A stretch of DNA of 64,000 nt from Vulcanimicrobiota bacterium (GCA_030041225.1 JASHOG010000040.1:16243-80242); one strand, 5' to 3'. Shown: positions 2,714-55,839, numbered from the stretch's first letter. A program made the numbers and translations. The notes: generated by a model from the letters alone, not told the origin.

Positions 2714-3466
2714 ATGCACACGAAGTCCATCAGGAGGGAATTGCGCTTCCTCCGTTATTACGCGCTCGCGACGACCCTGCTCTCCGGCATCGCGCTGCTT
2801 GGCGCAGCGGGAGCGATCCACGAAGCGGGTAACGCGACGTTTGACACGATCACCGCTCACCGGCTCGTTATCCGCGACAATGAGGACAAGCTCGCGATGG
2901 TGCTCGCGAACCACGATAATCCGATGCCGGGCATTTGGGCCGGCATGAGGACCTATAGGCACGGCGGCGGTGGTAACGAGATCATTTTCTACGACGAGAT
3001 GGGGGATGAGCAGGGCGGTTTCGTCTGGAGCGGCTTGGTCCACGCCAACGGAACGTACGATTCGGGCCTCGTGAACTCATATGACAGCGTCACGACCGAT
3101 CAGTTGCTGCAAGTCCACGACGGCAACAACAACGGCAGGACGTTCTCGTATGTGACCGGCTGGAACGAGCCGAACATACGGACCCCGCTTGCGCTGCAGG
3201 TCCTTCATGACTATGAAAGTGCGATCTACCGGCACGCGAGTCAACAACAGCTGCAGGCAATCGTCGAGCGATATCCGGCGTTCGCGCAAGGTCCGGTCAC
3301 GCGATATCTCGTTGGCTACGACAAGACGAATACGTCGCAGGTCATGCTGGCCGACGCGCAGGGTCATCCCCGCATCAAGATGTTCGTGCGACCTGATGGT
3401 ACCGCGGCCTTGCAGTTCCTGGACGCATCCGGAACGGTCATGGCGCAGTATCCTAGGACGCACTAA
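2714..3466 (+). CDS. membrane-anchored protein of unknown function, 'A' family copy 1
   Basis: 250-aa ORF with a strong SD. Basic N-terminus plus one TM helix (YYALATTLLSGIALLGAAGAI). Shares FDTIT-HR, GDEQGG and TSQVMLAD--GHPRIKMFV--DG---LQFLDA-G blocks with 10860-11585 and 13256-14008. No family recognised. Confidence 0.8.
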   Translation: MHTKSIRRELRFLRYYALATTLLSGIALLGAAGAIHEAGNATFDTITAHRLVIRDNEDKLAMVLANHDNPMPGIWAGMRTYRHGGGGNEIIFYDEMGDEQGGFVWSGLVHANGTYDSGLVNSYDSVTTDQLLQVHDGNNNGRTFSYVTGWNEPNIRTPLALQVLHDYESAIYRHASQQQLQAIVERYPAFAQGPVTRYLVGYDKTNTSQVMLADAQGHPRIKMFVRPDGTAALQFLDASGTVMAQYPRTH

Positions 3467-5194
3467 ATGATGCCGCCGGTCCGTATTCTGGTCGCGGGGA
3501 CCGTCGCCGCAGTTGCGTTCTTCGGAACGCATGCCGCCGCAACGCCCGTTCGTCACGCTCTCGCCTTTCGGATTTCATTTCCGGCACGGGCGCACCAGGC
3601 GCCGATCACCGGCCGCGTCTATGTCATCCTGACAAAGGAAGCACAACCGGATCCGCGCGTACAGGTTCTGTCTCCCGAGTCATCGCCCCCGATCTTCGCG
3701 AGAGACGTCACCGCGTTGCGGCCAGGCGAAGAAGCGGTTGTCGCCGCGAGCGCAGCCGGCTATCCGCTTCGCAGTATCGCCGACCTGCCCACCGGCGACT
3801 ATTATGTCGAAGCGCTGGCAAGCATATACACGCCGTACCTCCGCGCCGACGGCCATACGATTTGGGCGCCTCCACAATGGGGGCCTCAAGCCTTTTCGTT
3901 TGAGCCGGGCAATCTTCACAGCGTCGTTGAACGCGTGCACATTGATCACAACACGGGCGGCACGATCGACCTCGAGTTGAATCACGTCGTCGGCCCGAAC
4001 GAGCTCGGCAATCTCATGGGACAGCAAGGTTATTCCACGGACACTCCGTGGGTCAAGCACGTTCGTCTCGAGAGCGCAATCCTGACGAGGTTCTGGGGCC
4101 GTCCAATCTACCTTGGCGCGACGATTCTCCTACCCAAGGGGTACGCGGCGCATCCTCGCGCGCACTATCCCATTTTCTACCGCCAAGGGCACTTCGAACA
4201 GCCTGTCGCCGGCTACTTTACGACCGACAAGAGCACGGAGACGCCCGAGGCGATCGCGGAAGGAAAGAAGTCGGGAATGGGCACCGGCTACGAGTTCTAC
4301 GAGGCATGGACATCCGCGCACTTTCCGCGCGTGCTAGCGGTAACATTCCAGCATCCTTGCCCTTTCTTCGACGACTCCTACGCGGTCAACTCGGCAAACT
4401 GCGGCCCTTACGGGGACGCAATCATGCACGAATTGATTCCGTATATCGAGACACATTTTCGCGTATTGCGCGAACCGAGGGCGCGGGTTCTTGCCGGCGG
4501 GTCGACCGGCGGCTGGGAGTCGCTCGCGCTGCAAATCAAACATCCAACGTTCTTCGGCGGCGCATGGATCTTCCAACCGGACGAGATCGATTTCCACGCG
4601 TTCCAGCAGATCGATATCTATAGTGATGCGAACGCCTTCTACGCCCCCTCTCCGGCTTGGCATGCTTACGTGCGGCCGTGGGATCGCACCGTGACCGGAC
4701 AGGTACTTTGCACCGAGGAACAGCTGAGCCGATATGAGGAGGTGCTCGGCTCACACGGTCGGTCGGGATACCAGCTCGACGGCTGGTGGGCAATCTTCGA
4801 CCCCGTTGGCTCCGACGGATATCCCGAGCCGCTATGGAACATGCGAACCGGTATCATAAACCGCAGCGTAGCGGCATACGTGCGCGATCATGGCTACGAC
4901 CTTACCGCCTACTTGAAAGCACGCTGGCGTGAGATAGGCTCCGATCTCACTGGCAAACTGCATTTTTTCGTGGGCGACATGGACAACTATTATCTCAATC
5001 TCGCTGTCTACAGGATGCAGGTCTTTTTAAGCGGTGCGACTCGCCCGCGATCGGATGCGACATTCTCGTACGGGCGTCCACTCAAGGGACATGGATGGAT
5101 TCCAATGACTTGGTACGATCTGGTCAAGCAGATGGCGGTGCAAATCCGTAGGAACGCGCCCCGTGGCGAGAGCGACGCACAGTGGAACTATTGA
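3467..5194 (+). CDS. secreted esterase-fold (esterase D / enterochelin-esterase-like alpha/beta hydrolase) protein, 'B' family copy 1
   Basis: 575-aa ORF whose ATG directly follows the A1 TAA. Has a signal peptide (ILVAGTVAAVAFFGTHAAA). Contains the nucleophile elbow LAGGSTGGWESLAL within a WQHPCPFFDDSYAVNSANCGPYGDAIM...FFGGAW block. Paralog of 11586-13244. Confidence 0.8.
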   Translation: MMPPVRILVAGTVAAVAFFGTHAAATPVRHALAFRISFPARAHQAPITGRVYVILTKEAQPDPRVQVLSPESSPPIFARDVTALRPGEEAVVAASAAGYPLRSIADLPTGDYYVEALASIYTPYLRADGHTIWAPPQWGPQAFSFEPGNLHSVVERVHIDHNTGGTIDLELNHVVGPNELGNLMGQQGYSTDTPWVKHVRLESAILTRFWGRPIYLGATILLPKGYAAHPRAHYPIFYRQGHFEQPVAGYFTTDKSTETPEAIAEGKKSGMGTGYEFYEAWTSAHFPRVLAVTFQHPCPFFDDSYAVNSANCGPYGDAIMHELIPYIETHFRVLREPRARVLAGGSTGGWESLALQIKHPTFFGGAWIFQPDEIDFHAFQQIDIYSDANAFYAPSPAWHAYVRPWDRTVTGQVLCTEEQLSRYEEVLGSHGRSGYQLDGWWAIFDPVGSDGYPEPLWNMRTGIINRSVAAYVRDHGYDLTAYLKARWREIGSDLTGKLHFFVGDMDNYYLNLAVYRMQVFLSGATRPRSDATFSYGRPLKGHGWIPMTWYDLVKQMAVQIRRNAPRGESDAQWNY

Positions 5195-5215
5195 GCAAGA
5201 GCGGATTCCTTCGCT

Positions 5216-5695
5216 TCAACGTGCGCTTCGAGCTATTGGGAGGAGCGACGTTTCGCGATCCTTCAGCGTCTCGAGGAGCACGCCCGATTGGATCCCGCGC
5301 ACGCCCGGGATGTTGTAGAGCACGCCGAACAGCAACCTCGAGTACTCGTCGAGATCGTGCGTCACGATCTCGAGCACGACCCCCGACTCCCCGGTAAGCA
5401 CATGGCACGCGATGACCTGCGGCAGCGCTTGGAGATCCTCGCGCAACGATTTCGCGTGCGGCCACTCCACTTGAAGGCGCGCGTATGCGGTGACACCGAG
5501 CCCGAGCGCGCGGCGGTCGAGGATTGCGCGATATCCCTGGATGTAGCCGCTCTTTTCGAGACGGCGAACGCGCCGCAGGCACGGCGACGGCGAGAGGCCG
5601 ACCTTCTTGGCGAGAGCAGCGTTCGATAGGCTGCTATTGCGCTGCAATGCCGAAAGTATCCGCAAATCGATCGAGTCAAGCTTGGTTATTGGCAT
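5216..5695 (-). CDS. Lrp/AsnC family transcriptional regulator
   Basis: Track ORF 5216-5719; likely start at M9 (MPITKLDSIDLRILSALQRNSSLSNAALAKKVGLSPSPCLRRVRRLEKSGYIQGY), which gives the AsnC HTH plus a RAM domain. Confidence 0.85.
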   Translation of the reverse strand: MPITKLDSIDLRILSALQRNSSLSNAALAKKVGLSPSPCLRRVRRLEKSGYIQGYRAILDRRALGLGVTAYARLQVEWPHAKSLREDLQALPQVIACHVLTGESGVVLEIVTHDLDEYSRLLFGVLYNIPGVRGIQSGVLLETLKDRETSLLPIARSAR

Positions 5696-5770
5696 AAATC
5701 CCCCAAAGTGTGCTCGCATTAGCTACGTTATTGCTCGCGCATCGAGGGATTTCCTAGCAAGCCCGCGGAA

Positions 5771-5790
5771 CCCTCCTTGCGAACGGAGGG
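5771..5790 (+). promoter_or_regulatory. hairpin CCCTCC-N8-GGAGGG that pairs the Shine-Dalgarno of the outer-membrane receptor gene
   Basis: Read directly and anchored to the frame of ORF 5607. The 3' arm GGAGGG (5785-5790) sits 8 nt before the TTG at 5799. Confidence 0.3.
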
Positions 5791-5798
5791 AAGTAGGA

Positions 5799-8700
5799 TT
5801 GTTACAGCTCTCAGGACTTTGCACAGCGCGCATCGCGGTCATATCGGCCGCCCTCATCTTCGCGTTTCTCTCAGCGCCCGCGTCGGCGCAATCATCATCC
5901 AGCACCATCGTCGGAACGGTGAGAACGTCGAGCGGCGCTCCCGTCGCGGCTGCGAGCGTTGCACTGCGAGGTGTCGCGAATCAGACGACGACGACGGATG
6001 CGCAGGGAAGGTACCGCTTCAGCTCGATCCCGCCGGGCCTCTATCAGATCGTCGTCACGAAGCCGGGCTTCTTCCAGACGATCGCGGCCGTCGCTGTTGC
6101 CTCTGCCACCACCGTCACCGCCGACATCAGCATCGCGCCGCAATCCTTCGAGTCACTCCGGACGATCGCGCACGTCCAGACGAACGCCCCGGGGCAAGTA
6201 CAAATCAATCAAACAACCTCGGCAATCAACACCATTACGAGTCAGGAGTTTGAGGATCAAGGGCAAGTACAGGTTGGAAAACTCCTCAACGAAACTCCTG
6301 GAATCATTTCATGGAACGTCCCGGGCGAGGCGGCGGCCAACGGTGCCGACGCGTTCAGCCCACAAGAGATCCAGATTCGTGGGGCGCTTTACTATGAGAC
6401 GCAGACGCTCGTCGACGGCCATCCGACGCCGCTTTCTATACTCGGAGAGTTTAATCCGATCTACTTGAACCCGGCGCTGCTTCAGAACGTCGAGGTCGTG
6501 AAGGGGCCGGGGTCAATGCCCACCGACATCAACTACGCGATCGGCGGCACGGTGAACTTCATCACCTTGCAGCCCACGCTCACGCCGGAGGCAACCCTCA
6601 GCGTAGGAACCGACACGTGGGGCGGCGTCACAACGGCAATCCGTGCCACAGGCTCGACGACGTCACATTTCTTGCAATATGCGTTCGGGTACGCGACCGA
6701 CGGCGCACCCGGACCGATGCAGAACTATCAAGAGCCCGGCTCCGCACTCTTCCTCATCGCGGGCGATAACTGGAAGGTGAACGGTCAATCGCTTGCGGGC
6801 GATCCTTACGGTATTACGTTGGCGCCTGAGAGCTACTACAACCGCTACATCGGACAAGCCGGTGAGGTACAGTTCGCCGAGCCGTTCTACATCTGCTGCT
6901 GGGGATTCAACACGGCCTACGACTCGAAGGACGAGCTCGGAAAGATACGCCTCAACTTCTCACAAGTCAGTTCGCTCACGTTCAGTTTCCTTGGAGCTTC
7001 GGAGTTCGGCCCGATCGACAATGTCGGCGTTGCAGCCTCTGAGGCACCGGTCGGTGATCTCCCAAACAGCAGCGGCTCGATATTTGCACCGCCTGCGGGA
7101 TATACGGGCTCCCTACCGGCGGGGACGGCAATTCCTTTTGATAACGGAGCGTTCTTACCGGCAGACGAGTCGACGCAGCAATATCTCTATCAAGCAGAGT
7201 TTCGAACGGTGCTGGGGCCGTGGACGGCACTGCTACGATACTACGACGGCGGCACCAACGACTATGCCTACCTCGATGTCGCAGCGAACGGGTTCTACCA
7301 GTTTGCCGGAAAGACGTATGGCGGCGCCGAGCTTTGTCCGAGCGGCACCACTTTCAACGGGTCGGTATGCAACCCCGGCGGCCTTTCGCCGACGACGACG
7401 TACTTCAACGGTCAGCAGGTGAGCTTCTCCGCTTCCGACGCGACAAACCAAACCCTGACCGACAGTGAGTCGCGAGGAGAATCGATACTCTTGGAGCGGC
7501 CTTTTGGGAACGGCTCGGACCTTTCGCTCGCCGTCGATCGCCAGGGGCTGACGGGCTTCCAGTTCATCAACGTCCCGACGTCGGGCGTGCCTCCGTACTA
7601 CGCACTTTCGCCGGGAGCAAGCCAGCTCTTCACGACCGAGTCCGCCAAGTTCGGTCTCTTCGTCGCACCGAACGTTTACGCAGACGTCTCCGACTACATC
7701 ATCCAGTACGAGAGCCATTTCACCGACGATGGTGGCTCAACGTGGAAGACCGCGACCCGCGGTGACGATGCGCCGCGCATCGGCTTCACGTGGCAGCCGA
7801 ACGACGACGTCTCCTGGCGCTTCGCACTCGGTTCCTCAATTGCGCCTCCGTTTTTGAGCCTCTTATCCTCGCCCGGGTCGACGCCGGCGGAGATCAGTAA
7901 CGGCAACCCGACTGAAGGCTATTCGGAGAACCTCAATAACGGCGGAATTGCGCCGGAGACGGCCTTCGGATACGACATCGGCGTCGACAAGCGCCTCCAC
8001 GGCTCGATGTACGTCTCCTTCGATTCGTACCTCACCGACGTCTTCGACATGTACCTCCCGTCGACGTTCTTGATCAACAACGATTACGTTACATCGGGTT
8101 GCCCGGCAGGCTGTCTGCTGTTCGGGTCGGAGACCGAGAATCTCGGTCACGCTCGATACGAAGGCGTCGAGTATGCCCTCGGCAGTGCACCGGCCTCGGG
8201 CATAGGGTTCAAGATTCAAGGAGATCTCGAGCGTGCGTACGCCTACGATCTACCGCCGGGCTTCTATTGCACGAACGTGCCCGCGAGCCAGTGCACGCCC
8301 CTCAACTACAGCACGAATCTTGGGATCATTCCCGGCGTCAACTTCGAGCAGAGTGGATCCGGTTTCAACGCGATCAACGGAGCCTCCGTGCCGTACGCCA
8401 TGGGCTACGCCGAGCTGAACTATCGCACGCCCTCGGGAAGCTTCTACCAAATCGGCACGACGTATTTCGGCAACAACAACGCCTACAATGAGCCCGCGTT
8501 CTTTGTCCTTTCGGCAGGCATCCACGAGCAACTCGGCAGTCATCTCGCGCTGGTGCTGACGGCAGACAACCTCACCGATGCCGACGGCTCGCTTTGGCCG
8601 AGCATCTATGGGGGCGTTCCCGCGCCGCTCGAGCCCGAGTGCGTCGGCAAGTACGGTTCGTTGGCATACTTGACGGAAGGTGTCTCGTGCGCGGCCCTTG

Positions 8701-8825
8701 TGAATTCCGGGACGGTTCCCCGCAGCGACGTTTCGGTGGTTCCGCAAGAGGGGCTCACGACCGGCATGAACTATGGTCCCACGTCTTTTCGCCTTCAGCT
8801 CATCGACAAGATCGGCGGACCATAG
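5799..8825 (+). CDS. TonB-dependent-receptor-like outer-membrane protein with N-terminal carboxypeptidase-regulatory-like domain
   Basis: Track ORF 5607-8825 overlaps lrp, so I place the start at TTG 5799 (SD GGAGGG). This gives the signal peptide LLQLSGLCTARIAVISAALIFAFLSAPASA/Q, then a CarboxypepD_reg-like segment (TIVGTVRTSSGAPVAAASVALRG...TDAQGRYRFSSIPPGLYQIVVTKPGF), a plug-like region (ITSQEFEDQG...IQIRGA...TLVDGHP) and about 800 aa of barrel-like sequence. Confidence 0.8.
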   Translation: MLQLSGLCTARIAVISAALIFAFLSAPASAQSSSSTIVGTVRTSSGAPVAAASVALRGVANQTTTTDAQGRYRFSSIPPGLYQIVVTKPGFFQTIAAVAVASATTVTADISIAPQSFESLRTIAHVQTNAPGQVQINQTTSAINTITSQEFEDQGQVQVGKLLNETPGIISWNVPGEAAANGADAFSPQEIQIRGALYYETQTLVDGHPTPLSILGEFNPIYLNPALLQNVEVVKGPGSMPTDINYAIGGTVNFITLQPTLTPEATLSVGTDTWGGVTTAIRATGSTTSHFLQYAFGYATDGAPGPMQNYQEPGSALFLIAGDNWKVNGQSLAGDPYGITLAPESYYNRYIGQAGEVQFAEPFYICCWGFNTAYDSKDELGKIRLNFSQVSSLTFSFLGASEFGPIDNVGVAASEAPVGDLPNSSGSIFAPPAGYTGSLPAGTAIPFDNGAFLPADESTQQYLYQAEFRTVLGPWTALLRYYDGGTNDYAYLDVAANGFYQFAGKTYGGAELCPSGTTFNGSVCNPGGLSPTTTYFNGQQVSFSASDATNQTLTDSESRGESILLERPFGNGSDLSLAVDRQGLTGFQFINVPTSGVPPYYALSPGASQLFTTESAKFGLFVAPNVYADVSDYIIQYESHFTDDGGSTWKTATRGDDAPRIGFTWQPNDDVSWRFALGSSIAPPFLSLLSSPGSTPAEISNGNPTEGYSENLNNGGIAPETAFGYDIGVDKRLHGSMYVSFDSYLTDVFDMYLPSTFLINNDYVTSGCPAGCLLFGSETENLGHARYEGVEYALGSAPASGIGFKIQGDLERAYAYDLPPGFYCTNVPASQCTPLNYSTNLGIIPGVNFEQSGSGFNAINGASVPYAMGYAELNYRTPSGSFYQIGTTYFGNNNAYNEPAFFVLSAGIHEQLGSHLALVLTADNLTDADGSLWPSIYGGVPAPLEPECVGKYGSLAYLTEGVSCAALVNSGTVPRSDVSVVPQEGLTTGMNYGPTSFRLQLIDKIGGP

Positions 8826-8828
8826 CGG

Positions 8829-10820
8829 ATGCATCGCCTCCTGGCGGCCTTCGCATGGCTCTGCCTCGCAGCGCCGGCTACGGCATTGGCGCGCCCCTTC
8901 ACGCTCGACGACTACGCTCGCCTCGTCTCCGTAAGCGATCCCGAAATCTCGCCTGACGGCCGCAGCATCGTCGCCGTCGTTGGGCGCTCGGATTATACGA
9001 AGGATCAGACGCACACGGAGCTCGTACTCATCGATGTGGCAAGCGGCGCGCAGCGCGTGCTCACCCTCGGGCGTGATGACGTCGCCTCGCCACGCTGGTC
9101 GCCCGACGGAACGCAGCTCGCCTTCGCCGCGCCATCAGAAGGCGGCGACCACGCGGCGCAGGTCTGGGTGATGCCGATGAACGGTGGCGACGCGAGAACG
9201 GTGACGAACGCGAAGTACGGCGTCGAGGTCTATGCGTGGCGGCCCGATGGGAAAGCGATTGCGTACGTGACGCAGGAGACGCCGCCGAACGAGGCGGCGA
9301 TCGAGCGTCACGAGGACCTCTTCAATGTCGGCGATGAGCCGTTCTCGGCAACGGCGCTCTCCGTCTCGTCGCACCTCTGGCTACAACAGCTCTCCGGTGG
9401 TGCGGCGACGCGCTTGACGCAGGGGAACTGGAGCATTTCTCCCGGCGCGCTCTCGTGGTCGGCGGATGGAAAGTACATTGCATTCGATGAGTTGCCGGAC
9501 GCGCGTTTCGACAGCATCTTCCACTCCCGCGTCGCGGTGCTCGACATCGTAACCGGGCAGATCTCCTTTCCGGACGAGCGCTTTAGCCTCGCTTCCTCGT
9601 CGGCAGTCGTCCTCACGGCGGTCGCGTTCGCGCCGAGTGGAGATCGTCTCGCCTATACCGCCGGATCGCATGGCTCTGTCATTACTCAAGACGACCTCGA
9701 CGTCACGACGGTAGGGGAGCCCGGCGTGCGCGACGCGGCGCCGACACTCGATCGCAACATCGCTTTCTTCGCGTGGAGCCCCGGAGGCGGATTCATTGCC
9801 GCGGGGGATGACGGCGTCTCGCAGGGGCTCTGGCGCATCTCACCGGATGGGACGACGCAACGCGTCGATCTCGGCGATCTGAACTTTAACGGTGGCTCGG
9901 TGGCACAGAATGGCGCCGTCGCCTTCACCGCGTCGAGCGCGCAGCGCCCATCGGAGCTCTACTATCTCGCGCCGGGTTCGGGTTCGCCGCGCCGCCTCAC
10001 CGACGAGAACGCACGCATCGCGGCGCTCGACCTCGCGCCCGCGCAAGAGTTCACGTGGCACAACGACGGCTTCGACGAAGACGGCGTCCTGACGTACCCG
10101 CTCGGATACCACACCGGCGTGAAGTACCCACTCGTCCTCGACATTCACGGCGGGCCCATCCTCGAGGCTTCGACGACTTCGTTCGATCCGCGCGTCCAGT
10201 TGCTCGCAGCACGCGGCTTCGTCGTATTTCAGCCGAACTACCGCGGCAGCGACAATCTCGGGTTTGCGTATGCCGACGCGATCATCGGGCGCAACCCAAT
10301 GGAAGGCGTCGGCACGGATTGCGTTGCCGGCCTCAGAGCGCTCGAAGCGACGGGTGGCATTGACGAGAGCCGCATCGGCGTCTCGGGCTACTCGGCGGGA
10401 GGATGGGCCACTTCGTGGCTTATCACGCACTACGATCTCTGGAGAGCCGCGGTGAGTGGAGCTGCCGTCGACGACGTGGTCATGGAGTCTACGCTGAGCG
10501 AGATCGACTCGTTCATGCCTTTGATCTTCGGCGGGCTGACGCCGTGGTCGTCGCCCGGCGCACTAGAGGCCTATCGCGATGCATCGCCGATCACGTACGT
10601 GCAGAACGTCCACGCAGCCACGCTCATTCTCGTCGACTCGACGGATCCGCGAGCCCCGACGCCTCAGTCGTATGAGTTCTTTAGCGCACTACGAAATCTC
10701 GGCAAGGTCGTGCAGCTCACCGTCGTGCCTGCCTACGGACACCATCCCTCCGACCCGGTGCGAAATCGCGAAATCGACCGCGCATGGGTCGACTGGATGG
10801 TCAAGTATCTCTCGCCATAG
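8829..10820 (+). CDS. secreted S9 family serine peptidase (prolyl oligopeptidase/acylaminoacyl-peptidase type), 'C' copy 1
   Basis: 663-aa ORF with a signal peptide. Has TolB-like propeller repeats (SPDG...IA) and a catalytic domain with GVSGYSAGGW (Ser), VDSTDPRAP (Asp) and PAYGHHP (His). Confidence 0.9.
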   Translation: MHRLLAAFAWLCLAAPATALARPFTLDDYARLVSVSDPEISPDGRSIVAVVGRSDYTKDQTHTELVLIDVASGAQRVLTLGRDDVASPRWSPDGTQLAFAAPSEGGDHAAQVWVMPMNGGDARTVTNAKYGVEVYAWRPDGKAIAYVTQETPPNEAAIERHEDLFNVGDEPFSATALSVSSHLWLQQLSGGAATRLTQGNWSISPGALSWSADGKYIAFDELPDARFDSIFHSRVAVLDIVTGQISFPDERFSLASSSAVVLTAVAFAPSGDRLAYTAGSHGSVITQDDLDVTTVGEPGVRDAAPTLDRNIAFFAWSPGGGFIAAGDDGVSQGLWRISPDGTTQRVDLGDLNFNGGSVAQNGAVAFTASSAQRPSELYYLAPGSGSPRRLTDENARIAALDLAPAQEFTWHNDGFDEDGVLTYPLGYHTGVKYPLVLDIHGGPILEASTTSFDPRVQLLAARGFVVFQPNYRGSDNLGFAYADAIIGRNPMEGVGTDCVAGLRALEATGGIDESRIGVSGYSAGGWATSWLITHYDLWRAAVSGAAVDDVVMESTLSEIDSFMPLIFGGLTPWSSPGALEAYRDASPITYVQNVHAATLILVDSTDPRAPTPQSYEFFSALRNLGKVVQLTVVPAYGHHPSDPVRNREIDRAWVDWMVKYLSP

Positions 10821-10859
10821 CGAACGCGTTGAACGCTTCCTATAGGAAGAAATGAAAAA

Positions 10860-11585: not shown

Positions 11586-13244
11586 ATGGTCCATAGCGCT
11601 CCCCCGCCGCCCATCGCAATCCGTCTCTCGCTCGGCGCTTCCGCGCATCGCGCGGTGGCGAACGGGCGCGTCTACGTGATCGTCACAAAGGACCCGAACG
11701 ACCCGCCAATACAACTGCTCGAGCCTTCGACGACCCCTCCGTTCTTTGCAAAGGACGTGAACGATATGCGCCCGGGCGCCGTCGTTACGATCGATGCGAA
11801 GACGCCCGGATTTCCACTGAACAGCCTCGCCGATCTCCCGGCCGGAACCTACTACGTCGAAGGGCTCGTTGAGATCTACACACGATACCATCGAGCTGAC
11901 GGTCACACGATCTGGGCACCGCCGCAGTGGAGCGTTGCGACTGCTTCACACGAGGTGGGGACCCTTCGGAGCGCCATCGAGCGTGTTACACTCGATCCGG
12001 AGCACGGTATCTCGCTCGATTTGAGGCTCGACCGTCCGGTCACAAATCGCATCTTTGAGTCGTTAAAGCGCCCGAGAGTAGCCGGGCCTAATGCGCCGTG
12101 GATACGCAACGTGCGCATCCTGAGCCCGACGTTGACGCGTTGGTGGGGCGCGCCATTCTACCTTGGCGCGACGATCCTTCTTCCAAAAGATTACGCCTCG
12201 CATCCGAACGCGCACTATCCGGTACTCTACAATCAAGACCACTTCGATGACCCCGTGCCTTGGGGTTTCACTGCCGATGCAAGCACCGAGACGCCTGAAG
12301 CGATTGCCAGGGGGAGGCGCGCTGGATACGGCACGGGCTACGAGTTTTACAAGGCGTGGAGCTCGGCGCGCTTCCCTCGCTTCATCATGGTCACCTGGCA
12401 GCACCCGTGTCCGTTCTTCGATGATTCGTACGCCGTCAACTCGGCGAACTGCGGACCATTCGGCGACGCGATCATGAACGATCTCATCCCGTACGTCGAG
12501 TCGCACTTTCGCATCATTCGCAAGGGTTATGCGCGCATCGTTGAGGGCGGCTCGACCGGCGGGTGGGAATCGCTGGCGCTCCAGGTGCAGCACCCGGCGT
12601 TCTTCGGTGGTGCGTGGGTTTTCGACCCGGATCCGATCGACTTCCGTAGTTTCCAGCTCGTCGATCTCTACAACGATGATAATGCTTTCGAGGTACGCTC
12701 CCCCGACGGCTGGCAAACGTACGAACGTCCATGGGAACGAATGCCCAACGGGCAGCCCGTCGGAACGGAACGGCGTATTAGCCAGTACGAGTTGACGCTG
12801 GGGTCGCACGGCCGATCTCTCTATCAGCTCGACGGATGGTGGGCGATCTTCGATCCTGCCGGTCCCGACGGTTATCCCGAGCCAATCTGGAACATGAACA
12901 CCGGAGCGATCGATCGCAGCGTCGTCACGTATGCGCGGGATCACGGCTACGACCTCTCCTATTACATACGCGAACACTGGTCGAGCCTCGGTCCTGCGCT
13001 GGCGGGCAAGCTCCACTTCATCGTCGGCGATATGGATAGCTACTATCTCGACCTCGCCGTCTATCGCATGCAAGACGTTCTCGAAGCGACGACGAGCCCG
13101 CATTCGGATGCAACCTTTATCTATGGCCGGCCGATGAAGGGTCACGGTTGGCATCCGATGACCTGGGCGCAGCTGCTCCAGCAGATCGCACGCCAAGTCA
13201 AGGCAAACGCGCACGGCGATGATACCGCGCAGTGGAGCTATTAA
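11586..13244 (+). CDS. esterase-fold alpha/beta hydrolase, 'B' family copy 2 (no signal peptide)
   Basis: 552-aa ORF whose ATG directly follows the A2 TAG. Contains VEGGSTGGWESLAL and the same conserved blocks as B1. The N-terminus MVHSAPPPPIAIRLSLGASAHRAV aligns with the mature part of B1 and has no hydrophobic h-region. Confidence 0.8.
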   Translation: MVHSAPPPPIAIRLSLGASAHRAVANGRVYVIVTKDPNDPPIQLLEPSTTPPFFAKDVNDMRPGAVVTIDAKTPGFPLNSLADLPAGTYYVEGLVEIYTRYHRADGHTIWAPPQWSVATASHEVGTLRSAIERVTLDPEHGISLDLRLDRPVTNRIFESLKRPRVAGPNAPWIRNVRILSPTLTRWWGAPFYLGATILLPKDYASHPNAHYPVLYNQDHFDDPVPWGFTADASTETPEAIARGRRAGYGTGYEFYKAWSSARFPRFIMVTWQHPCPFFDDSYAVNSANCGPFGDAIMNDLIPYVESHFRIIRKGYARIVEGGSTGGWESLALQVQHPAFFGGAWVFDPDPIDFRSFQLVDLYNDDNAFEVRSPDGWQTYERPWERMPNGQPVGTERRISQYELTLGSHGRSLYQLDGWWAIFDPAGPDGYPEPIWNMNTGAIDRSVVTYARDHGYDLSYYIREHWSSLGPALAGKLHFIVGDMDSYYLDLAVYRMQDVLEATTSPHSDATFIYGRPMKGHGWHPMTWAQLLQQIARQVKANAHGDDTAQWSY

Positions 13245-13255
13245 ATGGAGGGAAC

Positions 13256-14008
13256 ATGGAACTTGAATCGCTCAGGCGAGAGGTTCGCGTATTACGAACG
13301 CTCGTCATCGGGCTGCTTGCAATCGCCGCAGTAGGGGTCACCGTAGCCGCCCGAAGTGATTGGCCGAACGGCCGGTTCGACCAGATTACGGTTCATCGCA
13401 TCAATGTCGTCGATGATAACGGCACGCTGCGCCTTGCCATCTCGAACGCCCAGAATATGCCTCCTCCGACGATGCACGGGAAGCCACTTCCGCTGCCCCG
13501 CAGTCACGTCAACGGAAACCCTTCCTTCATCATCTTCAACGCACTCGGTGACGAACAAGGCGGCTACCTCTGGGGCAGCACGGGATCCTTCCCTGGAAAA
13601 TACCACCAGTTTACGTACATGTCATCCGATCAATTCGAGCAGAATGATGCCTTAGGTCTTGGCTACGACGACTACGGACACGGTGAGCGAACCGCCGGCT
13701 TGGAGGGAGCGGAGCAGAAGACCAGTACGCCCATCGCCATCGTCATCAACGAGATGTTTGCGGCCATGAGTCACGCGAAAACCGCTGCACAGCGAACGGC
13801 AATCGAGCGCCGGTTCGAGAAATCGCATTTCGTTGCTTATAGCCGTTTCTTTGTCGGCTACAGTCCGGAAGGCTCGATGGTCAAGCTCTACGATACGCAG
13901 GGACGGCCGCGTCTGTTGATGATCGTGGGCAACGACGGCACGCCGAAGATCGAGTTCATGGACGCCGGAGGGCGCGTGACCTATCAACTGCCGGCGCCTC
14001 CTCGCTAG
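13256..14008 (+). CDS. membrane-anchored protein of unknown function, 'A' family copy 3 (most diverged)
   Basis: Track ORF 13232-14008; I prefer ATG 13256 after GGAGGG. Has a TM (LVIGLLAIAAVGVTVAA) and the FDQITVHRINVVDDNGTLRLAI, GDEQGG and YDTQGRPRLLMIVGNDGTPKIEFMDAGGRV motifs. Confidence 0.7.
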   Translation: MELESLRREVRVLRTLVIGLLAIAAVGVTVAARSDWPNGRFDQITVHRINVVDDNGTLRLAISNAQNMPPPTMHGKPLPLPRSHVNGNPSFIIFNALGDEQGGYLWGSTGSFPGKYHQFTYMSSDQFEQNDALGLGYDDYGHGERTAGLEGAEQKTSTPIAIVINEMFAAMSHAKTAAQRTAIERRFEKSHFVAYSRFFVGYSPEGSMVKLYDTQGRPRLLMIVGNDGTPKIEFMDAGGRVTYQLPAPPR

Positions 14009-14014
14009 AGAAGC

Positions 14015-16003
14015 ATGTCCTTCATACGGCCTCTCGGCGCATGCCTTGTGCTGACGCTTGCGGTTCAGTCGACAAGCTCCGCTCGAGCCCAAGACATATT
14101 TACGTTTCGTGATTACTACAGGATCGTTAGCGTCAGCGATGCGCGCATCTCGCCCGATGGCCGACAGGTCGTCGTGGTCGTGACGCGCGAGGATGAAGCG
14201 TCGGATCAGAGTGTGAGTGAGCTCGACCTGTTCGACGTCGCCACGCGAAGCACTCGCATCATCACCGAGAACCGCCCAGATGTCTCCTCGCCCCGTTGGT
14301 CACCCGACGGAGACCGGCTCGCCTTCATCGCCTCCGATACCGCCGGCTCGCCGCAAGTGTGGGTGATGCCGATGGACGGTGGCGATGCTCAGCCTGTCAC
14401 GAACGCGCCCACCGGCGTAGAGCTCTTCGCATGGCGGCCGGACGGCAGAGCGATCGCGTACGTCGCGCAGGATTCTCCGTCAGACCGGGTGCGCATCGCA
14501 CACCACGACGATCTCTTCACCGTTGGCAACCAACCCTATCTTTCGCACGCGGCAGCGCTTCCGTCGCATCTTTGGCTCCAGGTCATCGGTGCGACGGGAG
14601 CTCAACGGTTGACCGAAGGAACGTGGAGCGTCTTCCCTGACCCGATCTCCTGGTCACCGGATGCTCGATACATCGCCTTCGACCGGACGCCGTATGCGGG
14701 CTTCGATGCAGAGCTCAGGGATTCGAGAGTAGCCGTACTCGACGTCGGAAGAAGAACGGTCGTCGCACTCGAGCCGGGCTGGAGCTGGAATCCGTCCTTC
14801 GCGCCGTGGGCGGACCGCCTCGCCTACGCCGCCGGCGGATTCGGTGACATCGTTCAAACGCGGCTCGTCGCTTCCGCGGCGGGATCGTTCGCGGCGCACG
14901 ATGTCGCGCCCGCGCTGGACCGGAACGTGACCTATCTTTCGTGGCTCCCGAACGACGAGGGTTTCTTCGTTGCCGCAGACGATCGCGTTACACGCGCGCT
15001 CTGGCGCATTTCGCCGAATGGCGCGATGCGGCGAGTCGACCTCGGTGACCTGAGCTTCCAGGATGTCCAAGGCGGCAGCGTGAGCGCAAGCGGGGCGATC
15101 GCGTTTACGGCTGCGGCTCCGCTACGCCCCTCGGAGGTGTACTATCTTCCGCCTGGTGGAAATCAGCCGGAACGGCTCTCCAGCTATAATGCGCCCATCG
15201 CGCGTCTCAATCTCTCGCCCACGAGGGAGTTCGCATGGAGCAACGGAGCGCTCGAAGAGGATGGTGCTTTGACCTATCCGCTCGGCTACGAGCGCGGAAG
15301 ACGCTACCCCCTCGTGTTGGTGATTCACGGCTGCTGCGGTGCGTCGCAGGACTCGTTCGACCCGCTCGCGCAGCTGCTTGCCGCTCGCGGATTCTTCGTG
15401 CTGCAGCCAAACTATCGCGGCAGCGACAACCTCGGGCGCGCGTACGCGCGCGCAATGGTCGGCGATCCGGTGGATGGCCCTGCATCTGACTGCATGGCGG
15501 CGATCGCGGCGCTCGAGCACGCCGGCATGGTAGACCCTGCACGCGTCGGAGTCTCGGGCTGGTCGATGGGTGGCTGGCTGACCTCGTGGTTGATCACCCA
15601 CGACAAGGGATTTGCCGCGGCGGTGAGCGGGGCGGGGATCTACAACGCAACCATGCAGTATACGCTGAGTCGAGTCGATGGCTTGATGCCATACCTGCTC
15701 CATGGTGCCACGCCCTGGTCGGCACAAGGCGCGAGAGCATATCGTGCGGTCTCGCCCATTGCGTTTGCGCAAAACGTCAGCGTGCCCACACTCATCTTGA
15801 GTGATGCCGACGATCCGAACGTTCCGACGCCGGAGTCGTATGAGTTCTACGCGGCGCTGCGCGATCTCCACAAGAGCGTCCGGTTCGTCGTTGCTCCGGC
15901 GTACGGGCACCACCCGCCCGACCCGGTGCGCAACCTAGCACTCTACCGGACGTGGGTCGACTGGATGGTGCGCTACCTTTCGCCGAAGCCTGCAGCGCAA
16001 TGA
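14015..16003 (+). CDS. secreted S9 family serine peptidase, 'C' copy 2
   Basis: 662-aa ORF with a signal peptide. Motifs GVSGWSMGGW, SDADDPNVP and PAYGHHP. Collinear with 8829-10820. Confidence 0.9.
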   Translation: MSFIRPLGACLVLTLAVQSTSSARAQDIFTFRDYYRIVSVSDARISPDGRQVVVVVTREDEASDQSVSELDLFDVATRSTRIITENRPDVSSPRWSPDGDRLAFIASDTAGSPQVWVMPMDGGDAQPVTNAPTGVELFAWRPDGRAIAYVAQDSPSDRVRIAHHDDLFTVGNQPYLSHAAALPSHLWLQVIGATGAQRLTEGTWSVFPDPISWSPDARYIAFDRTPYAGFDAELRDSRVAVLDVGRRTVVALEPGWSWNPSFAPWADRLAYAAGGFGDIVQTRLVASAAGSFAAHDVAPALDRNVTYLSWLPNDEGFFVAADDRVTRALWRISPNGAMRRVDLGDLSFQDVQGGSVSASGAIAFTAAAPLRPSEVYYLPPGGNQPERLSSYNAPIARLNLSPTREFAWSNGALEEDGALTYPLGYERGRRYPLVLVIHGCCGASQDSFDPLAQLLAARGFFVLQPNYRGSDNLGRAYARAMVGDPVDGPASDCMAAIAALEHAGMVDPARVGVSGWSMGGWLTSWLITHDKGFAAAVSGAGIYNATMQYTLSRVDGLMPYLLHGATPWSAQGARAYRAVSPIAFAQNVSVPTLILSDADDPNVPTPESYEFYAALRDLHKSVRFVVAPAYGHHPPDPVRNLALYRTWVDWMVRYLSPKPAAQ

Positions 16004-18966
16004 TGAAGCGGTCGGTCGCTGTCGTCTTTGCGAGCTCCGTGCTGGCGCTACTTACGATAGGAGCGACGCCCGCTCCGCGCGATCCATTTGCGGCACTGAC
16101 GTTCCGAAGCCTCGGCCCTGACTCCGGCCGCCTCGACGCGGCGGCGGGCGTTCCCGGAGATCCAAGCATCTACTACGTCGGCGGCATCGGCGGTCTCTTC
16201 AAGTCCACGGACGGGGGCGCGACGTTCACATCGATCTTCGACGAGCCCGACGTCGGTGCAGTCGGCGCGATCGCCGTCGCGCCCTCGAGTCCGGACATCG
16301 TGTATATCGGAACGGGCGAGCCGAACCTCCGGAATGACATCGTTGCCGGCGACGGTGTGTGGCGGTCCGATGATGCGGGCAAGACGTGGCGCCACGTCGG
16401 GCTCGACGCGAGCGCGTATATCGCGCAGATCGCTATCGATCCGCACGATCCGGATATCGCGTACGTTGCGGCGATCGGCCCGGTCTTCGGCAGCGGCACG
16501 GTACGCGGCATCTACAAGACGAGCGATGGCGGAAAGACGTGGCAGCACGTGCTCGCTCTCGACGATCGCACCGGAGCGTCGAGTGTCGTCATCGATCCCG
16601 CCGACTCGTCGACAGTCCTTGCCGGCGCCTGGACCGCCTGGCGCAAGCCGTGGATTTTCAGCAGCGGCGGTCCGGACGACGGGCTCTACATCTCGCATGA
16701 CGCCGGAGCGCACTGGAGTCGTGTCGAGGGGAACGGCTTTCCAGACGGACTCACCGGGCGCATTGGCCTCGCCTACGCACCGTCGAACCCCTCGCGGATC
16801 TATGCGCTGATCGAGTCGAAGAGGGGTGTGCTCTGGCGCAGCGATGACAGCGGAGCAACGTGGCGTCTCATCAACGCGGGCCATGCGCTTGCGCAGCGCC
16901 CCTTCTACTTCTCGGAGCTCTCCGTCGATCCGCGCGACCAGAATCACGTCTACTTCCTCTCGTACAATGTCTTGGAGTCGCTCGACGGCGGAAAGACGAC
17001 GCATTCCGTGACCGCTGGTTCGAACGAGATCGACTTCCTCGGCGACAACCACCAGCTGTGGATCGACCCGAGCTTCGGCGCCCGCATGATCCTCGTCGAT
17101 GACCAGGGCGCAGCAATCTCGTTCGACGGCGGCAGAGACTGGATCTACCCGCAGATTCCGGTTTCGGAGATCTACCATCTTACGACGGACGATCGGATCC
17201 CGTACACGATCTGCACGGAAACCCAAGACGAGGGCAGTGCCTGCGGCCCGAACAACTCGAAGAGTGCAGGGATCACAGGTTCCGACTGGTTTAACGCCGC
17301 GGGCGGTGAGAGCGGCTGGATCCTCTTCGATCCAGCGAATCAAGACTGTATCTACGGCAGCGGGTACGAGGGAGTGCTCTCGCGTTTTGACCGGCGCACG
17401 AATCAGGCAATTGACATCTCTCCTTGGCCCTTCATAACGATAGGCTGGGTCACTCGCGACCTGCGCTATAGGTTCCAGTGGACTGCGCCGGTCGCCGTCA
17501 GCGCGCTCGAACCGCACGCACTCTACTTCGGTGGTAACGTCCTCTTCAAGTCGGACGACGAAGGCCTGCGCTGGCACGTCATCAGCCCCGACCTCACGCG
17601 TGACGACAAGAGTAAGCAGCTCGCCAGCGGCGGTCCGATCACGCCCGACGAAACCGGCACCGAGAGGTACGACACGATCTTCACCATCGCGGAGTCTCCG
17701 CTTCGGCGCGGCGAGATCTGGGTGGGCACGGACGACGGACTCGTCTGGCTAACGCGTGACGGCGGCCGTCGTTGGCAGAATCTCACGGCGCACATTCCGG
17801 GTATGCCCGAGTGGGCGCGAGTGAGCGGCCTCGTTCCTTCGCGTTTCGATCCCGCAACGGCGTATCTCACCGTTGACACGCACCTCATCGGCGACCCATC
17901 GCCCCATCTTTGGATGACGAGCGATTATGGTGCACACTGGCGACCGATTGCGGGCGATCTCTCTCATGCGTCGTACTCGCTCGTCTTAAAGGAGGATCCG
18001 TTCCGGCGCGGGTTGCTCTATCTCGGCACGGGGAAGGGGCTCTATCTGAGCTTCGACGACGGGACGCATTGGATGAGGATGCACGGCGGGCTCCCCACCG
18101 TGCCCGTCTATGACCTTGTTGTCCAGCCGCAGTTCGACGATCTGGTCGTGGGGACGCACGGGCGCGGAGTCTACGTGCTCGACGATCTCCATCCGCTGCA
18201 GGAGTATACGAGCGCGCTCGCCGCACGACCGCTCGCGCTCTTCACGGCGCGTACGGCCTATCGTTGGAGCACCGGTCGTAACACGTACGCCATCGACACG
18301 CAGCTCGGCACCGACCCGGCGTACGGTGCACTCGTCGACTTTTGGCTGCGCGACCTCCCGCTCAAGGGCAGGCAGGTCGACGTGCGTATCGACAGTGGCA
18401 CGCAGCGAATCCGAACGATCGTCGTCGCACACCCGCATGCCGGGATGAATCGCGTCGTCTGGGATCTGCGATACACCGGACTTGTGCCGGTGAAGGGCTC
18501 CGATCCCTTGAGCAGATTCGGTTTAGCCGGCTTCGACGGTCCGCGCGTCGTACCTGGTCTCTACCGGATCTCGGTTTCGGCTTCGGGCGTAACACGCAGC
18601 GGCACCGTCCGCGTCGCGGTCGATCCCCAATCACGCACGGCAGCGGCCGCGCTGCGAGCGCAGCTTGCGTTCCTCATGCGAATCCACAACGATCTCGCCC
18701 TCATCGGGGCGACGATCGACGCGCTGCGCGCCCTTCACACACCGCAGGCGGATGCGATCGCAGGGGAACTCTTCCAGCCACGAGCGAGGGAAGGCGAGGA
18801 CGTCCTACGTTACCCGGGTCACGCTTACGAGCTGCTGGGCGGTCTCGCGGCCGACGCGAGCCTCACCGACGCTGCTCCAACCGCTGCCCAGCGCGCCGCC
18901 CTGAGGTATCTCGAATCGCAGATACACGCGGCGCTCGTGCGCGCACAACCGCTCCTATCCCCTTGA
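16000..18966 (+). CDS. secreted BNR/Asp-box repeat beta-propeller protein (sortilin/VPS10- or GH74-like architecture)
   Basis: Track ORF 15952-18966; start at ATG 16000 (an ATGA overlap with the upstream stop) gives the signal peptide MMKRSVAVVFASSVLALLTIGA. At least 11 S-x-D-x-G-x-(T/H)-W Asp-boxes (STDGGATF, SDDAGKTW, TSDGGKTW, SHDAGAHW, SDDSGATW, SFDGGRDW, SDDEGLRW, TRDGGRRW, TSDYGAHW, SFDDGTHW ...). Confidence 0.85.
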   Translation: MMKRSVAVVFASSVLALLTIGATPAPRDPFAALTFRSLGPDSGRLDAAAGVPGDPSIYYVGGIGGLFKSTDGGATFTSIFDEPDVGAVGAIAVAPSSPDIVYIGTGEPNLRNDIVAGDGVWRSDDAGKTWRHVGLDASAYIAQIAIDPHDPDIAYVAAIGPVFGSGTVRGIYKTSDGGKTWQHVLALDDRTGASSVVIDPADSSTVLAGAWTAWRKPWIFSSGGPDDGLYISHDAGAHWSRVEGNGFPDGLTGRIGLAYAPSNPSRIYALIESKRGVLWRSDDSGATWRLINAGHALAQRPFYFSELSVDPRDQNHVYFLSYNVLESLDGGKTTHSVTAGSNEIDFLGDNHQLWIDPSFGARMILVDDQGAAISFDGGRDWIYPQIPVSEIYHLTTDDRIPYTICTETQDEGSACGPNNSKSAGITGSDWFNAAGGESGWILFDPANQDCIYGSGYEGVLSRFDRRTNQAIDISPWPFITIGWVTRDLRYRFQWTAPVAVSALEPHALYFGGNVLFKSDDEGLRWHVISPDLTRDDKSKQLASGGPITPDETGTERYDTIFTIAESPLRRGEIWVGTDDGLVWLTRDGGRRWQNLTAHIPGMPEWARVSGLVPSRFDPATAYLTVDTHLIGDPSPHLWMTSDYGAHWRPIAGDLSHASYSLVLKEDPFRRGLLYLGTGKGLYLSFDDGTHWMRMHGGLPTVPVYDLVVQPQFDDLVVGTHGRGVYVLDDLHPLQEYTSALAARPLALFTARTAYRWSTGRNTYAIDTQLGTDPAYGALVDFWLRDLPLKGRQVDVRIDSGTQRIRTIVVAHPHAGMNRVVWDLRYTGLVPVKGSDPLSRFGLAGFDGPRVVPGLYRISVSASGVTRSGTVRVAVDPQSRTAAAALRAQLAFLMRIHNDLALIGATIDALRALHTPQADAIAGELFQPRAREGEDVLRYPGHAYELLGGLAADASLTDAAPTAAQRAALRYLESQIHAALVRAQPLLSP

Positions 18967-18980
18967 AAGGCAGTATCACG

Positions 18981-19280
18981 ATGCCCGCATACGTCATCGT
19001 TGACGTCGACACAAAATACCCGCAAGAGTACGAGCACTATAAGGAAATGGCGCAGAAAACGGTCGCGCAGTACGGAGGACGCTACCTCGTGCGAGGTGGC
19101 CAGATGAACGTGTTGGAGGGCTCGTGGCAACCCACGCGGATCGTCGTCGTCGAGTTCGATTCATACGAGAAGGCCCACGAGTGGTGGAACTCGGTCGAGT
19201 ATGCTCCGGCAAAGGCGTTGCGCCAGCGGCTGAGTACGACCCACCTTCTCATCGTCGACGGTTACAATACGACGTTCTGA
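18981..19280 (+). CDS. DUF1330 domain protein
   Basis: This is the last 99 codons of track ORF 18342-19280: MPAYVIVDVDTKYPQEYEHYKEMAQKTVAQYGGRYLVRGG...VVVEFDSYEKAHEWWNSVEYAPAKALR, which matches DUF1330. The upstream part of that ORF overlaps the BNR gene and is spurious. Confidence 0.75.
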   Translation: MPAYVIVDVDTKYPQEYEHYKEMAQKTVAQYGGRYLVRGGQMNVLEGSWQPTRIVVVEFDSYEKAHEWWNSVEYAPAKALRQRLSTTHLLIVDGYNTTF

Positions 19281-21689: not shown

Positions 21690-21695
21690 CGAGCC

Positions 21696-33661: not shown

Positions 33662-33664
33662 TGC

Positions 33665-39810: not shown

Positions 39811-39989
39811 CAGACCTCCACTATAAGGTGTCGTGCGTGCGGAAACCATGCCCAGCGAAGGGGCAAGAAATTGTGCTTGCATGCATTCGGTGGGAGACAT
39901 CGTACTGAACCTGTGTGAGCGGCCGTACGTCCGAAGCCGATCGTCTTTTTTGGGGATTCGAAGACAATCCTCCGACCGAGATTGCAACG

Positions 39990-48877: not shown

Positions 48878-48917
48878 CGAGGGAGCAACTTCACTGCCAG
48901 CGAAGCGGCATCCTGCG

Positions 48918-55742: not shown

Positions 55743-55839
55743 TTAAGCCTGTCCTCGATACTTGCGGGCGCGGAGCGAGCACGCTATGCTCTCTGTCACA
55801 AACCTGTCATACGGCCGGAGAGACGGTTGGAGGTGGAGC

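Follow-up and report, generated by a model that had tools for sequence, protein, structure and literature searches.

The genes between positions 2,714 and 19,280 of a 64,000-nucleotide stretch of DNA from a Vulcanimicrobiota bacterium (GCA_030041225.1, JASHOG010000040.1:16243-80242; the window, in what follows) held an expanded form of an operon whose gene order was conserved in related genomes. With moderate confidence, this operon is read as a system under Lrp control that takes up oligopeptides or peptide-like oligomers in a TonB-dependent way and degrades them in the periplasm. It encoded a TonB-dependent transporter (TBDT) of the Oar subclass, S9 serine peptidases (family C), Pfam-less proteins (family A), esterase-fold serine hydrolases (family B) and a large exported propeller protein, and an Lrp/AsnC-family regulator gene was divergent from it. 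The same order, lrp(-) | TBDT-C-A-B-propeller, was found in 13 distinct complete loci and in 5 more that were truncated by contig ends, and because of this recurrence the operon is regarded as a genuine functional unit. The initial annotation of the region had proposed a protein or peptide utilisation locus. Of that proposal the functional unit stood, and its peptide logic was backed by neighbouring SBP_bac_5, aminotransferase and peptidase genes, whereas the substrate itself is a prediction.

Related loci were obtained by scanning one genome per species with a profile of the A family, which yielded 31 loci. The window proteins were mapped on all loci retrieved (L-numbered below), and three direct look-ups were added. 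Protein identity to the window ranged from 44 to 78%. Most related loci belonged to Eremiobacterota/Vulcanimicrobiota (Baltobacteraceae, Tyrphobacter, Aquilonibacter), and two came from metagenome-assembled genomes (MAGs) labelled Acidoferrum/Acidiferrales. Judged by the names given to its nearest homologs, the window region would most likely belong to Eremiobacterota and be Baltobacteraceae-like. Orthologs of A2 (56-71% identity) lay between C and B, those of the propeller protein (44-72%) closed the operon, and those of the Lrp/AsnC regulator (57-78%) were placed in the same way, divergent from the operon, in 14 loci (13 distinct, as L003 and L019 are one contig). The possibility that homologs of A, B and C never co-localise in other genomes, raised with the first proposal, thus does not hold. 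Order variants were TBDT-A-C-A-B-propeller, TBDT-C-A-A-B-B-propeller and TBDT-TBDT-C-A-B-B-A3-C-propeller, the last of them in L039, the closest relative found, which had the A3-C2 pair in common with the window (A3 ortholog at 71% identity). In Acidobacteriaceae (L005/L006, 2595-13467), a tandem B-B pair was divergent from the gene of a 1,080-residue sortilin/BNR propeller, with Peptidase_S10, Peptidase_M1, amidohydrolase, AstE/AspA and window-type aminotransferase neighbours and with no A, S9 or TBDT gene; the pairing of B with a propeller protein is therefore conserved beyond Eremiobacterota. One Eremiobacterota locus (L034, positions 4300-15400 of MAG MFD09603.bin.2.186) displayed only partial matches to the TBDT, C, A, B and propeller genes, which suggests either a locus in decay or a long-read assembly with many indels. 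A solo A gene (L022) was present in this MAG as well.

All open reading frames (ORFs) of the initial annotation were present in the window. On the plus strand, the operon ran from the TBDT gene (5799-8825) through C1 (8829-10820), A2 (10860-11585), B2 (11586-13244), A3 (13256-14008) and C2 (14015-16003) to the propeller gene (16000-18966), and these genes would be transcribed together. C1 and A2 were the counterparts of the C and A genes of the canonical operon, the start of B2 abutted the stop codon of A2, and A3, a divergent paralog of the A family, was paired with C2. The tight spacing reported for this part of the region was confirmed, with gaps of 3, 39, 0, 11, 6 and -4 nucleotides between successive genes and of 14 nucleotides to the DUF1330 gene that follows. 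A further pair, A1 (2714-3466) and B1 (3467-5194), was located on the plus strand outside the core operon, beyond the minus-strand lrp gene (5216-5719), which 79 nucleotides separated from the TBDT gene. No sigma-70 promoter or intrinsic terminator scored above shuffled controls in a sequence scan of the region.

Paralogy of the copies exceeded by far what chance would give. Amino-acid identity was 51-54% for A1/A2 (BLASTP 51%, E 4e-85), 59-60% for B1/B2 (BLASTP 59%, E 0) and 54-56% for C1/C2 (BLASTP 54%, E 0), while A3 shared 31-35% with A1 and A2 (BLASTP 31% for A1/A3 and 33% for A2/A3, E 1e-29 to 1e-34). Nucleotide identity of the pairs in codon-threaded global alignments was 47-63%, and the same codon was used at 46-50% of identical residues in A1/A2, B1/B2 and C1/C2 and at 37-47% in the pairs involving A3. 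Such low codon sharing and nucleotide identity indicate old, retained duplications rather than an assembly artefact. The region had been described as three copies of an A/B/C hydrolase module, but the gene count was three A, two B and two C, with A3 distant from the other A genes. The window is an expanded derivative of an ancestral unit with a single C, a single A and a single B gene, and it carries lineage-specific extras, namely the A3-C2 pair inserted before the propeller gene and the A1-B1 pair outside the operon.

Domain calls made earlier (CarboxypepD_reg with Plug, Peptidase_S9 with an N-terminal propeller, PF00756, Sortilin-Vps10/BNR, Lrp/AsnC, TetR and DUF1330) were upheld. The statement that every product except B2 has an export signal was accurate for B2, which had none, but the Lrp and DUF1330 proteins also lacked one, and the N-termini of the A proteins resembled signal anchors and not ordinary cleaved signals; all export calls were made with a hydropathy heuristic on N-termini.

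The transporter started at a TTG codon with a GGAGGG Shine-Dalgarno sequence upstream, and comprised a signal peptide, a CarboxypepD_reg extension (PF13620, residues 36-111, 57.2 bits against a cutoff of 32.3), a Plug domain (PF07715, residues 137-240, 48.3 bits against 23.9) and a putative barrel of about 750 residues. A CarboxypepD_reg N-terminal extension together with a Plug domain defines the Oar subclass (PMC6434023), and the window TBDT displayed exactly this architecture, the extension preceding the Plug. The approximately 750 residues after the plug had no Pfam barrel match in the window protein, and the orthologs in L003 and L039 matched PF00593. A TonB box was not identified in the window TBDT. 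Its C-terminus (8790-8825) read RLQLIDKIGGP; outer-membrane barrels typically end in an aromatic residue. The protein scored 37.2 bits on the SusC/RagA-type model TIGR04056, the cutoff of which is 368, and domain-library scans found no SusD-like domain in any gene of the operon.

Both C proteins were S9C-like, were predicted to be exported and matched Peptidase_S9 with 132.4 bits (C1) and 134.5 bits (C2), far above the cutoff of 22.6, behind an N-terminal propeller recognised by PD40 (43 and 46 bits) and DPPIV_N (30.6 and 29.8 bits). The nucleophile motifs were GYSAG at position 520 in C1 and GWSMG at 515 in C2, and a triad in the order Ser-Asp-His (S522, D606, H638) was invariant across six C paralogs and orthologs. 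The best PDB matches were the S9 peptidase 8wt1 and the Deinococcus acyl-peptide hydrolase 5yzm, and AtxE2 structures were also listed. Among NCBIfam models the best similarity was to Dpp5 (NF053518), at 154.1 bits for C1 and 169.6 bits for C2, below the curated cutoff of 900; scores on the Atxe2 lasso-peptide isopeptidase model (NF033523) were 145.3 and 158.4 bits against a curated cutoff of 400. On these profile and database matches, C is a genuine S9 peptidase, nearest to the acyl-peptide hydrolases and Dpp5.

The B proteins belonged to PF00756, with scores little above the cutoff of 22 (31.9 bits for B1 and 30.1 bits for B2). The motif GGSTG was present in both copies, as the nucleophile GGSTGG in B1 and at residue 321 in B2, and S346, D504/D506 and H542 were invariant in 30 B homologs. 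An AlphaFold model (predicted local distance difference test, pLDDT, 83) displayed an N-terminal beta-sandwich followed by an alpha/beta hydrolase domain of the esterase-D/CE1 type, and the best Foldseek matches were the soil-metagenome esterase 8z91 and CE1 feruloyl and acetyl-xylan esterases, at 11-16% identity. The family, with a length of about 575 residues, had more than 7,800 matches, mostly in Terriglobia and Eremiobacterota. A role as siderophore esterase was ruled out by the gene context and by the score on the enterochelin esterase model NF007758, which reached 16.7 bits over some 50 residues around the nucleophile against a curated cutoff of 222. B1 possessed a signal-like N-terminus, while the ORF of B2 allowed no upstream extension. 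The signal-less N-terminus of B2 was common to the B copies of L004, L008, L009, L010 and L039, and the remaining B orthologs carried Sec-type or lipobox-like (LAGC) signals. Members of the signal-less subclade began exactly at the mature N-terminus (M-x-H-A-P-P-P-I-x-V-R-L-S-F-P) and were always encoded directly behind an A gene.

Proteins of the A family, about 240 residues long, had no Pfam match above the gathering score and no NCBIfam match, the best being AMP_N at 16.7 bits for A1 (cutoff 24.6); no PDB sequence matched at E <=10, and ten distant members likewise gave no significant Pfam or NCBIfam match. A word-indexed search retrieved 46 relatives, and an exhaustive profile search retrieved 3,375 cluster representatives at E <=1e-3 (395 at E <=1e-30), so A represents a large unannotated family. 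At the N-terminus, a conserved basic RxLRxY motif (R11, L13, R14 and Y16) was followed by 17-20 hydrophobic residues, and these N-termini are probably signal anchors rather than cleaved signals. In the AlphaFold model of A1 (pLDDT 86), a single helix (residues 3-39) preceded beta-hairpins broken by a helical insert (158-192). Against solved and viral predicted folds, Foldseek returned only single-layer or repeat beta-sheets (OspA, Rhs, MORN, YwqK-like) at template modelling (TM) scores <=0.33. The Glu of a GxExGG motif, the Asp of FDQ, an Arg, an Asp and several Gly of the C-terminal hairpins were invariant in distant members.

The initial annotation had counted A among the hydrolases of the module, and no test gave a hydrolase signature. 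A hidden hydrolase, for instance a glutamic peptidase, could be imagined from the invariant Glu, Asp and Gln residues, but appears unlikely, the fold matches being non-catalytic beta-hairpin repeats. From its modelled structure, A would most likely be an inner-membrane-tethered, non-catalytic binding or scaffold protein. Homology to TonB, ExbD, LptC or anti-sigma factors was rejected, since neither sequence nor fold searches gave a match and only about 16 residues make up the cytoplasmic tail. Hitch-hiking of the signal-less B2 on A through the twin-arginine translocation (Tat) pathway was also considered, given the S-x-R-R-x-L-like N-terminus of A, and was discarded because the twin arginines are not conserved (R-N in A2). 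In four distant members (P0231, P0255, P0280 and P0312) the hydrophobic anchor was replaced by some 75 residues of a soluble helical extension resembling a coiled coil; the family is thus not uniformly membrane-anchored.

Beyond the operon, A genes were encountered in a small sample of contexts, so that the statistics are anecdotal. A Steroidobacteraceae homolog stood in a cluster ordered TBDT - DUF885/amidohydrolase - M19 - M1-like - A - aminotransferase - ATP-binding cassette (ABC) transporter. Among other distant homologs, one was flanked by genes for an OMP_b-brl_4 protein and a tricorn-type S41 protease and had an S15 peptidase near, one came behind genes for an S9 peptidase and a BNR protein and had an M55 peptidase near, and one immediately preceded the gene of a 1,303-residue CarboxypepD_reg outer-membrane protein. 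Two solo A genes in Eremiobacterota followed a Met-zincin and an M23 peptidase, respectively. The association of A with peptidases and TBDT-like proteins is recurrent, not obligatory. A more speculative proposal, to which a small probability is given, is that A, as a widespread envelope component, couples outer-membrane TBDTs to periplasmic peptidases in diderm phyla outside Bacteroidota and may escort signal-less B2-type hydrolases to the envelope; loci with such coupling would form a new class of peptide utilisation locus.

The last gene of the operon, also last in related loci, encoded an exported protein of 988 residues with a BNR/Asp-box, sortilin-Vps10-like multi-propeller and a C-terminal domain; Sortilin-Vps10 matched with 97 bits over four stretches. 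No PDB match was obtained by phmmer. A profile built from five orthologs matched GH74 xyloglucanases (E 6e-20 to 1e-12), the dispase-autolysis-inducing protein (DAIP) and sortilin. Assignment to GH74 was rejected, since the matches ran blade by blade and not colinearly, and the catalytic Asp of DIGG was aligned to a Gly (GLGG) in an alignment of low confidence. The score on the F510_1955 glycosylhydrolase model (NF045728) was 115.9 bits in three stretches, below the curated cutoff of 175. The propeller protein is most likely a binding protein or a non-classical hydrolase.

Lrp/AsnC regulators are classically amino-acid responsive. The product of the divergent lrp gene contained HTH_24, an AsnC-type helix-turn-helix (HTH; 66.6 bits) and an AsnC_trans_reg (RAM) domain (53.7 bits), the latter two above their cutoffs, and the gene was a conserved partner of the operon. 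Just upstream of lrp, at least 10 canonical loci encoded an SBP_bac_5 substrate-binding protein (SBP) of the OppA/DppA type (567 residues), preceded by an aminotransferase gene in 8 and by a Met-zincin gene in 3 of them. In the window, a class I/II (aspartate-type) aminotransferase (Aminotran_1_2, 131 bits) was encoded at 657-1844 on the minus strand; its orthologs (60-64% identity) lay upstream of lrp in 9 loci (8 distinct, L003 and L019 counting once), and the gene was inverted in the window relative to the other genomes.

Two further genes at the edges of the region had been included in the proposed system, and neither was kept in the related loci. A TetR-family regulator (TetR_N and TetR_C_13) was encoded at 2035-2730 on the minus strand, was specific to the window and had no ortholog in the mapped loci. 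The 5' end of its ORF overlapped the divergent A1 start by 17 nucleotides (2714-2730) and its HTH did not begin before residue 51, which points to an internal codon as the probable true start. The DUF1330 protein (PF07045, 114.6 bits; 18981-19280, plus strand) was predicted to be cytoplasmic, with no hydrophobic N-terminus; it too had no ortholog in the mapped loci and followed the operon in the window genome only.

Taken as an uptake system for oligopeptides, the operon would work as follows. The Oar-type TBDT would carry across the outer membrane substrates that exceed the size limit of porins, and these would be cut in the periplasm by the propeller-gated S9 oligopeptidases (C) and by the esterase-D/CE1-fold hydrolase (B), with A and the large propeller protein most likely serving in accessory binding or scaffolding. 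Products would then be handed to peptide-binding SBP/ABC systems and to transamination, and through the divergent Lrp/AsnC regulator expression would follow amino-acid status. The inserted A3-C2 pair and the separate A1-B1 pair under a TetR-type neighbour would be gains of the window, presumably widening the substrate range.

Several findings weigh against this interpretation. The sole characterised transporter of the Oar subclass serves protease export and not import (PMC6434023), and genes for TonB/ExbBD or an inner-membrane peptide permease were absent from the operon. The nearest structural relatives of B are carbohydrate and other esterases rather than peptidases, and the solved relatives of the propeller protein are GH74 glycosidases, DAIP and sortilin only. 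The lack of a signal in B2 and its orthologs makes for a poor fit with a purely periplasmic pathway. The SBP_bac_5 gene of the canonical loci was absent from the window, where the interval is occupied by the TetR gene and A1-B1, and of the A genes outside the operon about half lay in unrelated contexts.

Export could replace import if the Oar-type TBDT secreted C, B and the propeller protein as extracellular depolymerases. The defining Oar-subclass architecture of the TBDT would suit this, and in Myxococcus xanthus the secretion of PopC, a protease without signal peptide, requires Oar (PMC6434023), while B2-type hydrolases are likewise signal-less. This is a single experimental precedent, however, and S9 peptidases with gating propellers take short peptides, which suits a periplasmic role after import; the OppA-like SBP and the aminotransferase of the canonical locus fit uptake, and the lipobox-like signals on some B orthologs suggest tethering to a membrane rather than release, so that a secretion unit appears improbable. 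An equally small probability is attached to a substrate other than peptides, an ester-bearing polymer such as a feruloylated or acetylated plant glycan, xyloglucan or a polyester, with B in the role of a CE1-like esterase and the propeller protein in that of a GH74-like glycosidase. The best fold matches of B, which also carry an N-terminal beta-sandwich, and the reach of the propeller profile to GH74 xyloglucanases speak for it. The low identity of B to the CE1 enzymes, the blade-wise GH74 match and the Asp-to-Gly replacement in its low-confidence alignment argue against it; moreover, none of the conserved genes of the cluster was recognised as coding for a glycoside hydrolase, a sugar transporter or a sugar regulator, the conserved partners being the S9 peptidase, Lrp, the aminotransferase and the OppA-like SBP.

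The operon might also serve the catabolism or detoxification of a peptidic natural product (a lasso peptide, a cyclic depsipeptide or lipopeptide, or a catecholate-ester siderophore). The compound would enter through a dedicated TBDT, and its opening would fall to an S9 enzyme, isopeptidase-like, and to an esterase. Clusters combining a TBDT with an isopeptidase are known in Proteobacteria. The scores of C1 and C2 on the Atxe2 model, the AtxE2 structures among their PDB matches and the inclusion of enterochelin esterases in the Pfam family of B, PF00756, are consistent with such a role. Scores on the Atxe2 and enterochelin esterase models were nevertheless far below the curated cutoffs, similarity of C to Dpp5 was at least as high as to Atxe2, no lasso, nonribosomal peptide synthetase (NRPS) or Fur-type genes were seen, and Lrp control with an SBP_bac_5 and aminotransferase context points to bulk nutrition; this role is therefore considered doubtful. 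Finally, B hydrolases, S9 peptidases, Oar-type TBDTs and BNR propellers are each abundant, and A also occurs alone, so common exported enzymes of soil bacteria could have been juxtaposed by chance and duplicated locally. Tight gene spacing and a five-gene order kept with divergent lrp at 44-78% identity in many genomes, including MAGs labelled Acidobacteriota, make such a coincidence very hard to credit.

Regulated loci that pair a TBDT with exported degradative enzymes are well known as a general kind. In the literature searched, no description was found of this gene combination, of such a locus in this phylum, of an Oar-type TBDT in such a role or of the A family, and nothing relevant was retrieved on TonB and peptidases in Eremiobacterota, on VPS10-domain proteins in connection with TonB, or on PDB 8Z91. 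The closest functional precedent of the oligopeptide uptake proposed here is the RagAB oligopeptide importer of Porphyromonas gingivalis with its periplasmic S9 dipeptidyl peptidases (10.1101/755678; PMC8048996), the parts of which are not homologous in defining respects. P. gingivalis combines, as the window operon would, oligopeptide uptake by a TBDT with exported S9 exopeptidases (DPP4, DPP5, PTP-A and AOP in P. gingivalis) that trim the peptides before inner-membrane uptake. RagA, however, is of SusC type and is closed by the SusD-like lid lipoprotein RagB, whereas the window TBDT is of Oar type and has no SusD, and the P. gingivalis peptidases are scattered instead of lying in one operon and have no A, B or propeller partners.

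The SusC/SusD polysaccharide utilisation loci (PULs) of Bacteroidota likewise join a TBDT and exported enzymes for one substrate class in a single regulated locus and show paralog expansion. Unlike them, the window operon contained neither a SusC/SusD pair nor carbohydrate-active enzymes (CAZymes), and it differed in phylum, in regulator (Lrp/AsnC) and in predicted substrate. The resemblance to PULs noted in the initial annotation thus holds for functional logic only, given that SusD was absent and that no match of SusC type exceeded its cutoff.

Oar of M. xanthus has in common with the window TBDT a signal peptide, a CarboxypepD_reg extension, a plug and, probably, a large barrel, as well as a genetic or functional link to proteases; it has its own TonB-ExbBD and is required for PopC export, whereas the window TBDT lies in a hydrolase operon with uptake-type neighbours. 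In the Atxe2 lasso-isopeptidase clusters of Alphaproteobacteria an S9 propeller peptidase also stands beside a TBDT, and the window peptidases are similar to it at 145-158 bits. That score lies below 400, however, no lasso biosynthesis or FecIR-type regulation was found near the window operon, and the B, A and propeller genes are additional. The CE1/esterase-D (PF00756) esterases 8z91, 7b5v and 5vol shared with B the fold, the domain order and the Ser-Asp-His arrangement, but B is about 200 residues longer with insertions, is only 11-16% identical to them and has peptidases, not glycoside hydrolases, as partners.

The remainder of the window was rich in exported peptidases, which speaks for the peptide interpretation. 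A putative second cluster for peptide or amino-acid catabolism spanned 30534-40122 on the minus strand, with genes for a DUF885 protein (30534-32159), a LuxR/GerE-TPR regulator (32156-33661), a gamma-glutamyltranspeptidase (33665-35356), an MFS_2 transporter (35346-36689), a DAO-type flavin adenine dinucleotide (FAD) oxidoreductase (36686-38008) and a third S9 peptidase of 765 residues (37825-40122). On the plus strand, a very large protease of 1,029 residues with a Trypsin_2 domain fused to many Sel1 repeats was encoded at 48858-51947 and a tricorn-like protease of 1,103 residues (PD40, Tricorn_C1, PDZ_Tricorn and Peptidase_S41) at 52431-55742; behind the latter lay a 413-residue ORF with no Pfam match (55762-57003). 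A CsaB-like polysaccharide pyruvyl transferase gene beside that of a 670-residue DUF5693 protein (20613-23708, minus strand) formed a pair for modifying cell-envelope glycans, unrelated to the operon.

Eremiobacterota are abundant and almost wholly uncultured in peat, boreal and Antarctic soils, and their acquisition of organic nitrogen is poorly known. If the favoured interpretation is true, an Lrp-linked operon of an Oar-type TBDT and S9 peptidases would represent a concrete route for scavenging oligopeptides outside Bacteroidota. The operon also bears on import versus export by Oar-type TBDTs, a subclass that has expanded greatly in Acidobacteriota and Myxococcota and of which a single member has been characterised. 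Two large families without an assigned function, A, for which no database model exists, and the B hydrolases of about 575 residues, gain from it a genomic context that can guide assays.

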